Positions 1 to 1,026 of a stretch of 1,026 nucleotides of DNA are shown in pieces; position 1 is the first letter of the stretch; each line of letters opens with the position of its first letter. The notes under the pieces are model-generated. The model was not told the origin of the DNA, did not search any database, and saw nothing but the letters and a program-made list of their open reading frames with translations. This DNA is from Escherichia coli (GTDB taxonomy: Bacteria > Pseudomonadota > Gammaproteobacteria > Enterobacterales > Enterobacteriaceae): NCBI RefSeq assembly GCF_003334405.1, contig NZ_QOWM01000050.1. One strand, 5' to 3'. A program made the translations under genes and the position numbers.

Positions 1-48
1 GTTTAATACGGTATTCCTGTTCTACATGCACACCCATAACTCACCTTA

Positions 49-549
49 TCAAAATCTGTTCACTACAGCAGTCACCAGAGTTTCTAACTGTTTCGCTGTT
101 TGCTGACAAATATTAAGCGCATCATTAATTTCCTTTCTGAATTCAGGATCGTTAACAATACAAAATCTGTCACCACTAATGATATAATGAACATTGCGTC
201 CGAGTTTGTTAATTTCCGTTTTAAGTCTCCTGATTTCTTTAATCTCATCAGGATAAAGACAGACTTCATTTTTTAACAAAGACTGACGTACACGAATAGC
301 AATTTCTCTGCTCATGCTCATGCCGTGAAGGACAGCATTACGTTTAACAAGTTCTATTTCATGAGGGTAGAGATAAGTGAAAACTGGTTTTGCAGCCTCA
401 TTCTTAACAGGAATAGATACTGGCTTTGTTGGTACATCAAGAACTTTCATTTTTGCGAATACATTTACACTATCAACTCCATATGAAGCTGCATTTACTC
501 TCGCAAGTTCATATTCATCATCATTTAATCTAAAACATACATTTTTCAT
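49..549 (-). CDS. Hypothetical DNA-binding protein with tandem ribbon-helix-helix (RHH)-like repeats; 166 aa from the ATG at 547-549 (track ORF 49..624 uses an upstream TTG)
   Basis: Uninterrupted minus-strand reading frame ending in TGA at 49-51. In-frame ATG at 547-549 is preceded by GGTGA (554-558), a plausible Shine-Dalgarno. I spot-checked the track translation against the sequence (residues GMSMS at 310-324; C-terminal NRF at 52-60). The protein has repeated modules of a short hydrophobic strand followed by an acidic helix (VCFRLNDDEYELARVNAASYGVDSVNVFAKMKVL; VFTYLYPHEIELVKRNAVLHGMSMSREIAIRVRQSLL), each with a G-x-(D/S)-x-S turn typical of CopG/Arc/MetJ-type RHH domains. The gene could not be matched to a named family from memory. 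Confidence 0.6.
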   Translation of the reverse strand: MKNVCFRLNDDEYELARVNAASYGVDSVNVFAKMKVLDVPTKPVSIPVKNEAAKPVFTYLYPHEIELVKRNAVLHGMSMSREIAIRVRQSLLKNEVCLYPDEIKEIRRLKTEINKLGRNVHYIISGDRFCIVNDPEFRKEINDALNICQQTAKQLETLVTAVVNRF

Positions 550-553
550 TCTT

Positions 554-558
554 TCACC
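554..558 (-). promoter_or_regulatory. Candidate ribosome-binding site (GGTGA) for the ATG at 547-549
   Basis: Minus-strand sequence reads ...ctctatGGTGAaagaATGaaaaat...; GGTGA matches the 3' part of the AAGGAGGTGA consensus, 4 nt before the ATG. Confidence 0.35.
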
Positions 559-563
559 ATAGA

Positions 564-598
564 GCCTGCGGCAGGCACAGGCAAAAACATCGTTTTTG
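564..598. promoter_or_regulatory. Pair of inverted repeats just upstream of the RBS: GCCTGC-g-GCAGGC (564-576) and CAAAAAC-atc-GTTTTTG (582-598); candidate operator
   Basis: Both are perfect inverted repeats read directly from the sequence. The CAGGC motif occurs three times: once inverted (564-568) and twice direct (572-576, 578-582). They lie between the candidate promoter and the ATG, where RHH repressors typically bind. Confidence 0.3.
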
Positions 599-611
599 GA
601 CAATCTACTGA

Positions 612-627
612 AAATTGCATGCAATTT
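612..627. promoter_or_regulatory. 16-bp perfect palindrome AAATTGCATGCAATTT; candidate protein-binding site overlapping the candidate -10
   Basis: Positions 612-627 are exactly self-complementary across a GCATGC core. A perfect 16-mer palindrome is unlikely by chance in 1 kb (rough expectation on the order of 0.01-0.02). Confidence 0.35.
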
Positions 628-642
628 CTAGTGGATTGTCTA
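614..642 (-). promoter_or_regulatory. Candidate sigma70-like promoter for the RHH-repeat gene: -35 TAGACA (637-642), 17-bp spacer, -10 TGCAAT (614-619)
   Basis: Hexamers and spacing read on the minus strand. The -35 is a 5/6 match to TTGACA; the -10 is only a 4/6 match to TATAAT and lacks the conserved A at position 2. An alternative is -10 TATAGT (658-663) with a weak -35 TTTATA (682-687, 18-bp spacer). Neither is strong; this is a prediction only. Confidence 0.2.
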
Positions 643-777
643 TCCTGCATTGATTGTACTATATGTGGCGCTGTGCCTAGCTATAAAATCGTCGCTGCAT
701 ATGTCCAGATTTCGTTGCTGAAAGGTTCTTTCGTCTTCGACCATCTGGCAAACGTATAGCTGAAAGATTTGTGAAAG

Positions 778-909: not shown

Positions 910-1026
910 TTAAGCCCCTGCGCGATGATTGCTGACTTCTTTTTCCAGAGCCTTATTAACAAAGGCGTTCAGTGATAAATCTTCTTCCATCGCCATTTCT
1001 GCTACCCGACGATGCAGTTCTGGATC
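910..1026 (-). CDS. 3' end of a gene truncated at the window edge; C-terminal RHH-type DNA-binding domain resembling the C-terminus of HicB-family antitoxins
   Basis: Reverse complement of 913..1026 translates in frame with the window edge to DPELHRRVAEMAMEEDLSLNAFVNKALEKEVSNHRAGA, followed by TAA at 910-912. The pattern P-x-LH-x-x-(hydrophobic)-A-x-x-A-x-E-x-x-SLN-x-(F/Y/W)-(V/I) is the helix-turn-helix half of an RHH fold as I recall it from HicB-type and related antitoxins. The N-terminal part of the protein is outside the window, so the family call is tentative. It is absent from the ORF track because no start codon lies inside the window. Confidence 0.55.
   Translation of the reverse strand, partial: DPELHRRVAEMAMEEDLSLNAFVNKALEKEVSNHRAGA

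Follow-up and report, generated by a model that had tools for sequence, protein, structure and literature searches.

The question raised by this locus is where the gene for a conjugation protein begins, and what the DNA immediately upstream of it is for. The window (the whole 1,026-nucleotide stretch of DNA that was analysed) comes from Escherichia coli contig NZ_QOWM01000050.1 of assembly GCF_003334405.1 and is part of an IncX4-type conjugative plasmid; it has 99.9% identity to a segment of several E. coli plasmids of about 30 kb, such as NZ_CP070012.1 (2042-3067), and its close plasmid relatives are typed IncX4 with a MOBP relaxase and MPF_T. The gene in question, taxA (also called ddp1), lies in a minus-strand open reading frame (ORF, 49..624) of 191 amino acids that opens with a TTG at 624-622 and has the N-terminus MHAIFSRLSKNDVFACACRRLYGER-MKNVCFRL. 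An in-frame ATG is found at 549-547, with the Shine-Dalgarno (SD)-like sequence GGTGA (558-554) 4 nt upstream. An initial annotation, made from the sequence alone, held that the ORF was over-extended, that the coding sequence was 49..549, and that 550-624 was 5' untranslated region and operator. The sequence facts behind this proposal (the positions of the TTG and the ATG, the spacing of GGTGA and the palindromic character of the extension) are all correct. The conclusion reached here is that taxA very probably does start at the ATG, and that the DNA upstream of it is the core of an origin of transfer (oriT) of the plasmid.

The RefSeq coding sequence, called by the Prokaryotic Genome Annotation Pipeline (PGAP), is 49..549 exactly (WP_001694182.1) and is labelled "ddp1: DNA distortion polypeptide 1"; sister plasmids use the name taxA. 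The NCBIfam profile DDP1 (NF041451) aligns with the 191-residue ORF at 234 bits (cutoff 150), pairing residues 26-190 with profile positions 1-164. With the 166-residue protein the score is 234.9 bits, and residues 1-165 correspond to positions 1-164 of 169. The shorter protein thus scores over the curated cutoff and is covered end to end, as is expected of a DDP1/TaxA equivalog, and the gene has the expected context, directly upstream of a MOBP taxC on an IncX backbone. Among 20 homologue clusters (54-100% identity), 16 start at the methionine corresponding to Met26 of the ORF. Column conservation also starts there, with M26, K27, F31, R32 and L33 invariant or nearly so. Roughly 2000 plasmid records contain a homologue of TaxA. 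The correct start of taxA is already in RefSeq, and the result for the start codon is known and contains nothing against current understanding.

The DNA on the 5' side of the conserved ATG does not behave as coding sequence. Counted upstream from it, the stretch that stays open in frame is 26, 1, 1, 18, 29, 39, 3, 27, 1, 19, 24, 23, 1, 6, 1, 3 and 13 codons long in 17 lineages, and six or fewer in eight of them. In related plasmids the frame is closed by a stop 2-7 codons before the ATG; in pSH696_34 and pGDZJ003 this is a TGA two codons upstream. The conserved palindrome GCCTG(T/A)GCCTGCCGC(A/T)GGC translates as ACACRRL, PVPAAG or CLSLPLA depending on the lineage; it is read in three frames relative to the ATG, so the distance between it and the ATG varies by lengths not divisible by three. 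Alignment of homologues had been named in the initial annotation as a check that might overturn the shorter gene, and with stops so close to the ATG and conserved DNA in three frames it does not.

The frame from the TTG is open in the window, TTG is permitted as a bacterial start, and some gene callers have placed the start further upstream in sequences that are near-identical or related (P0001, P0002 and P0006-P0008). A 191-residue TaxA with a 25-residue extension, translated from a genuine or perhaps alternative start at 624-622 in the plasmid lineage of the window, is nevertheless extremely unlikely. Neither of the two upstream TTGs has an SD sequence, the calculated energy of binding to the 16S rRNA being only -1.7 kcal/mol for 624-622 and -0.5 kcal/mol for the other. 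The GGTGA site is in the top 8% of 20-mers on the minus strand, which is moderate and not strong, and an SD-like element precedes the conserved ATG in all 12 homologues tested (-4.0 to -15.9 kcal/mol). These energies were computed with a longer 16S 3' end, as the short anti-SD sequence (ACCUCCUUA) underestimated the GGTGA site. In the predicted leader RNA the TTG is paired within a stable hairpin (probability of being unpaired 0.03), while the SD sequence (0.71) and the ATG (0.79) are open. In relatives the extension is absent, closed by stops or represented by DNA in other frames; the same DNA is conserved at a second oriT, where it has a frameshifting indel, and in plasmids that have no gene downstream. 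The curated family profile begins only at residue 26.

The composition of the extension leads to the same result. The 75 nt lie in palindromic DNA, comprising the palindromes at 564-576 and 582-598 together with the left arm and centre of the inverted repeat at 599-640, and the TTG itself is in the inner stem of that repeat, adjoining its apex. The extension was described in the initial annotation as richer in GC than the gene body, and the values are 0.44 for 550-624 and 0.349 for 49-549; only 0.7% of 75-nt windows within the gene reach 0.44. GC at the three codon positions is 0.50/0.31/0.24 in the gene body and 0.40/0.48/0.44 in the extension, which lacks codon periodicity. An AlphaFold2 model of the ORF has a predicted local distance difference test score (pLDDT) of 24-37 across residues 1-30 and no secondary structure there. 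The probability of 25 stop-free codons by chance is 0.28, and shuffles of the intergenic sequence gave an extension of at least 25 codons in 13.6% of cases, so an open extension of 25 codons ending in a start-like codon is not unusual by chance. The 191-residue ORF is an artefact of taking the longest ORF, and the 25-codon extension is non-coding and open by chance.

Compared at the level of sequence, 550-624 is most of the core of one of two oriTs on the plasmid. The nick consensus of MOBP relaxases is (C/T)ATCCTG(C/T), located beside an inverted repeat (PMC3772185). The plus-strand sequence TATCCTGC at 641-648 fits this consensus and is directly 3' of the repeat at 599-640, which ends 1 nt before it, as in MOBP oriTs where an inverted repeat is immediately 5' of the nick motif. 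TATCCTGC is invariant in all lineages, in the second oriT copy of the plasmid, and in the oriTs upstream of ddp1 in IncX1, X3 and X8. The block CAATGCAGGATAGACAAT (in gene orientation) is invariant across every lineage examined, and the palindrome at 564-576 is kept in every lineage, plasmids that lack taxA among them. Conservation of the underlying oriT DNA also explains why longer gene calls share the residues "FACACRRLYGE", since the DNA is equally conserved where no gene follows.

The second copy of the unit at 561-666 is inverted and has 94% identity to the first, being essentially identical over 561-653 apart from a deletion of 1 nt. It adjoins the replication initiator gene, and a DDP3-like DUF2726 gene begins 18 nt downstream of it. 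According to published descriptions, IncX plasmids carry a pair of oriTs within long inverted repeats, the one close to taxC and the other close to repX/ddp3 (PMC3402527, PMC5955891; both cite Avila et al. 1996 for R6K). The inverted second copy near the replication genes and ddp3 has this architecture, which is already published, and in this respect the finding is already known. The two copies end 12 nt (taxA/ddp1) and 18 nt (DUF2726/DDP3-like) upstream of genes for "DNA distortion polypeptides", in the same relative orientation. The ends of several short-read contigs (L015, L016, L018, L021 and L022) fall within the duplicated oriT, 40-69 nt before the taxA ATG, which is the assembly signature expected at a two-copy repeat.

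The pairing within the inverted repeat at 599-640 is conserved. As single-stranded DNA it folds with an energy of -10.3 kcal/mol (z -4.9), and none of 200 shuffles was as stable. Six further lineage variants also fold, with z from -3.8 to -6.7 for the seven variants overall, and the hairpin ends just before TATCCTGC. Across ten variants of the repeat the outer 7 bp (GACAATC/GATTGTC) are common and the interior differs, with two-sided compensatory changes at at least seven stem positions and an apex of GCATGC, GTTAAC, GGTACC, GCTAGC or GATATC. Stem pairs were counted by script from the ends and from the centre of the palindrome, since the MAFFT alignment of the variants was out of register for the stems. 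The compensatory changes and the folding show selection for two-fold symmetry, which does not distinguish between a hairpin on the transferred strand and a symmetric duplex site for a dimeric protein. A scan of the window against Rfam at permissive E-values gave only a meaningless snoRNA match (E 0.51), and the palindromes are not accounted for by any known RNA element.

The palindromes are flanked by the gene and by a promoter-like site (687-658), the candidate promoter of taxA-taxC, and both oriT copies are 12-18 nt upstream of a ddp-family gene. TaxA-type ribbon-helix-helix (RHH) accessory proteins of RP4 and F-like systems autoregulate at their oriT. On such grounds 550-640 could be seen as the 5' untranslated region and repressor operator of taxA-taxC only, with no role as a transfer origin, but this is very unlikely: it does not explain why an invariant MOBP nick motif directly adjoins the repeat, why a second copy without the 687-658 promoter-like site is located at the replication region, or why the core occurs on tiny plasmids in which there is no taxA for it to control. 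The promoter prediction is also no better than chance, with three promoter-like sites found in the window and 2.0 expected, and the consensus scan found no promoter inside 550-624. The description of 550-624 in the initial annotation as 5' untranslated region and operator is thus incomplete at best, as the repeat, the palindromes, the nick motif and the second copy point to an oriT core; an added operator role beside that of oriT is possible.

No transcription start site (TSS) for taxA is given in the text or supplements of the IncX4 Cappable-seq paper (PMC8725589). As there is only the promoter-like site upstream of 624 and of the nick, which is absent from the second copy, transcription most likely runs through oriT. 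The TSS is then likely to be upstream of 624, and TSS mapping, suggested earlier as a check on the start, would probably not discriminate between the two start codons.

Two other ORFs cross the palindromes, one of 34 amino acids at 546..650 on the minus strand and one of 46 amino acids at 619..759 on the plus strand, and PGAP has called a 48-residue "hypothetical protein" over the equivalent region of pGDZJ003. That the region encodes one of these small proteins is scarcely credible. The call in pGDZJ003 hinges on a tandem duplication of 44 bp unique to it. Indels of a length not divisible by three are found among lineages and between the two copies in one plasmid, and nothing is annotated over 561-800 in most RefSeq records. 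The duplication, in pGDZJ003-1-MCR-1 (L002) at 3558-3645, is of the equivalent of window 561-604, which contains the accessory palindromes, and led PGAP to call the 48-residue protein (3516..3662) across oriT.

Several points weigh against an ATG start preceded by an oriT core. The SD sequence GGTGA is only moderate. Three homologue clusters are called with longer N-termini, and P0006 and P0007 have "FACACRRLYGE" in common with the window. With eight occurrences of YATCCTGY in the 32.6-kb plasmid, the motif by itself lacks specificity. For this IncX4-type sequence the literature searched gave neither an experimentally mapped nick site nor a mobilisation assay or a TaxA footprint, and one oriTfinder-based paper puts the IncX4 "oriT-like region" elsewhere (PMC6287198). 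The oriTfinder repeat published as "oriT-like" for pEC11b corresponds to NZ_CP070012.1 803-836, just past the taxC stop; it has no nick motif nearby and was rejected as a candidate, and it looks like a terminator hairpin rather than an oriT.

The locus is most like the R6K/IncX system of oriT-alpha and oriT-beta, with the gene pair taxA then taxC, a product of the NCBIfam DDP1 family, and two oriT copies in inverted orientation, the first adjoining taxA/taxC and the second adjoining the replication region, beside a ddp3-like gene. It differs from R6K in that the TaxA of the window is about 25% identical to R6K TaxA (supplement of PMC8725589). IncX1, X3 and X8 have the same layout 82-102 nt upstream of ddp1, namely nick motif, inverted repeat, a spacing of about 35-50 nt, and SD sequence with ATG, although their TaxA proteins are merely 25-30% identical to that of the window. 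The inverted repeat of those plasmids has an unrelated sequence, with GACAATC... in the window and GGGCAAACG... in the IncX1/X3 type. RP4 (IncP; TraJ and TraI) has a MOBP relaxase, ATCCTG/C (the slash marking the nick) immediately 3' of an inverted repeat, and an accessory gene adjoining oriT (PMC3772185). The window repeat is longer than that of RP4, with 21-nt arms, and abuts the nick motif directly, and RP4 has one oriT, not two. The NCBIfam match to RP4 TraJ is weak, covering ORF residues 78-189 (E 0.059) with 13.7 bits, far below the cutoff of 134.

R64 NikA and F TraY are also small proteins encoded beside oriT, directly upstream of the relaxase. F TraY has two RHH repeats in one chain. 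A similar pair of RHH-like repeats, in register with each other, appears to be present in TaxA (residues 1-40 and 53-93 of 166) ahead of two long helices, with P = 7e-4 for the internal repeat. Weak Pfam matches to NikA-like and Arc families recur across the TaxA family, none of them significant. For the window these are sub-threshold, with E 0.003 for Arc (ORF residues 80-119) and E 0.35 and 2.9 for NikA-like, the second at residues 25-50. Among 21 family members Arc is matched at E <= 0.1 in 16 and at E <= 0.001 in none. The AlphaFold2 monomer, made from a 21-sequence alignment, is of low confidence (pLDDT 54, predicted template modelling score 0.28). It has helix pairs at ORF residues 35-62 and 87-116 and long C-terminal helices at 125-149 and 160-188, with helices only and no strands, unlike R64 NikA and F TraY. 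The model was too poor for a fold search and was used solely for the layout of secondary structure and for the disorder of residues 1-30. A sequence search of the PDB with the ORF gave no match at E <= 10. The first RHH-like strand, which the initial annotation placed at KNVCFRL, is accordingly weakly supported, the Pfam matches being sub-threshold and the model of low confidence. TaxA is also mosaic between lineages: P0004 has a window-type N-terminal half and a C-terminal half of the mcr-1-IncX4 type, and P0005 has the reverse, which implies recombination inside taxA.

Across 11 lineages the central hexamer of the repeat tracks residues 3-5 of TaxA (window 535-543, minus strand). GCATGC is found with NVC, GTTAAC with MIA, GGTACC or GGGACC with (Q/E)(V/I)K, and GCTAGC or GATATC with QIL/QIM; the loci compared include L004, L005, L013, L014, L017, L019, L020, L023 and L025. 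In two closely related pairs the apex and the strand residues have both switched, with the repeat arms remaining similar. Common descent and close physical linkage, at a distance of about 70 nt, confound the association. The repeat apex and the first putative RHH beta-strand of TaxA may, tentatively, be a co-evolving specificity pair, and each oriT copy may also serve the ddp gene 12-18 nt downstream as a shared leader or operator; this proposal is more doubtful than not.

The repeat and nick core is also found, at up to 97% identity, in plasmids of 1.4-4.2 kb that have neither taxA nor taxC. The core is at 110-164 in pEC881_8 (L006, 1459 bp), at 875-967 in pLH50-c-j (L007, 1565 bp) and at 2870-2970 in pEC648_3 (L008, 4237 bp), and judging from these matches the three are likely to be oriT-only hitchers on IncX4 helpers. 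MOB-suite gives two of the three as non-mobilizable. NZ_CP062216.1 (L005, 2255 bp, RepL/Col(MG828)) combines a homologue of taxA with two distinct IncX oriT cores, at 657-666 (+) and 2235-2226 (-), one of the IncX4 type and one of the IncX1/X3 type (GGGCAAACG...CGTTTGCCC TATCCTGCATCG).

The features of the window are collected in the table below. All of its genes are on the minus strand, with the taxC ATG 11 nt past the taxA stop, and homologous loci have a PF03432 Relaxase directly downstream of taxA. The plasmid carries taxB and a virB-type type IV secretion system, its close relatives are typed IncX4, and taxA is essential for IncX4 transfer by transposon sequencing (PMC8725589). Between hicB and oriT, the stretch at 780-900 is GC-rich (0.60) and holds several short palindromes, GTTACGGCTGAAGCCGTAAC within 806-827, GCCCTTACAGGGC at 881-893 and GGCGCAAAGCGCC around 860-872. 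It falls in the leading region of the transferred strand and has no Rfam match.

Table. Coordinates of the features in the window, with the basis for each.
Feature	Position	Strand	Basis or remarks
taxC 5' end (MOBP relaxase)	1..37	-	ATG 37-35; RefSeq CDS (coding sequence) 849..2078 of NZ_CP070012.1 mapped onto window
taxA/ddp1 CDS, 166 aa, relaxosome accessory protein	49..549	-	start ATG 549-547; RefSeq, NCBIfam DDP1, homologue alignment
Spurious 25-codon ORF extension, non-coding	550..624	-	from TTG 624-622; periodicity, SD, conservation, pLDDT
SD-like GGTGA, 4 nt before ATG	554..558	-	-7.4 kcal/mol vs 16S 3' end
oriT repeat unit	561..666	.	second, inverted copy by rep gene, NZ_CP070012.1 9659-9764
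Palindrome GCCTGC-G-GCAGGC	564..576	.	invariant alignment block; present in 17 lineages
Palindrome CAAAAAC-ATC-GTTTTTG	582..598	.	read from sequence; conserved except pEC881_8, which lacks it
42-bp imperfect inverted repeat of oriT	599..640	.	21-nt arms, 86% complementary; predicted hairpin on nicked strand
Nick motif TATCCTGC	641..648	+	MOBP consensus match; predicted nic G647/C648, by analogy with RP4
Promoter-like site, candidate taxA-taxC promoter	658..687	-	-35 TTTATA 687-682, -10 TATAGT 663-658; consensus scan, 9/12 matches
hicB antitoxin gene 3' end, leading region	910..1026	-	RefSeq CDS 2951..3298 of NZ_CP070012.1

With taxA starting at the ATG and an oriT core upstream of it, the locus would function as follows. 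TaxA would be translated from 549-547 behind the GGTGA ribosome-binding site. The order of the core on the plus strand is the two palindromes, the repeat and then the nick motif TATCCTG/C, and the TaxC relaxase, aided by TaxA bound at the repeat, would cleave the plus strand after G647. The plus strand would be transferred 5'-first, with hicBA entering first and taxA-taxC last, and the repeat hairpin on the transferred strand would be recognised again at termination.

At this locus the longest-ORF rule puts 25 false residues on a conjugation protein and hides an origin of transfer within a "gene." IncX4 plasmids are the main vehicles of mcr-1, and placing the oriT core at 561-666, with its nick motif at 641-648, helps to predict which small plasmids are able to hitch-hike on them. 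If the co-evolution of the repeat apex with TaxA is true, the pair would be a readable recognition code setting which IncX4-type helper mobilises which oriT-only plasmid.

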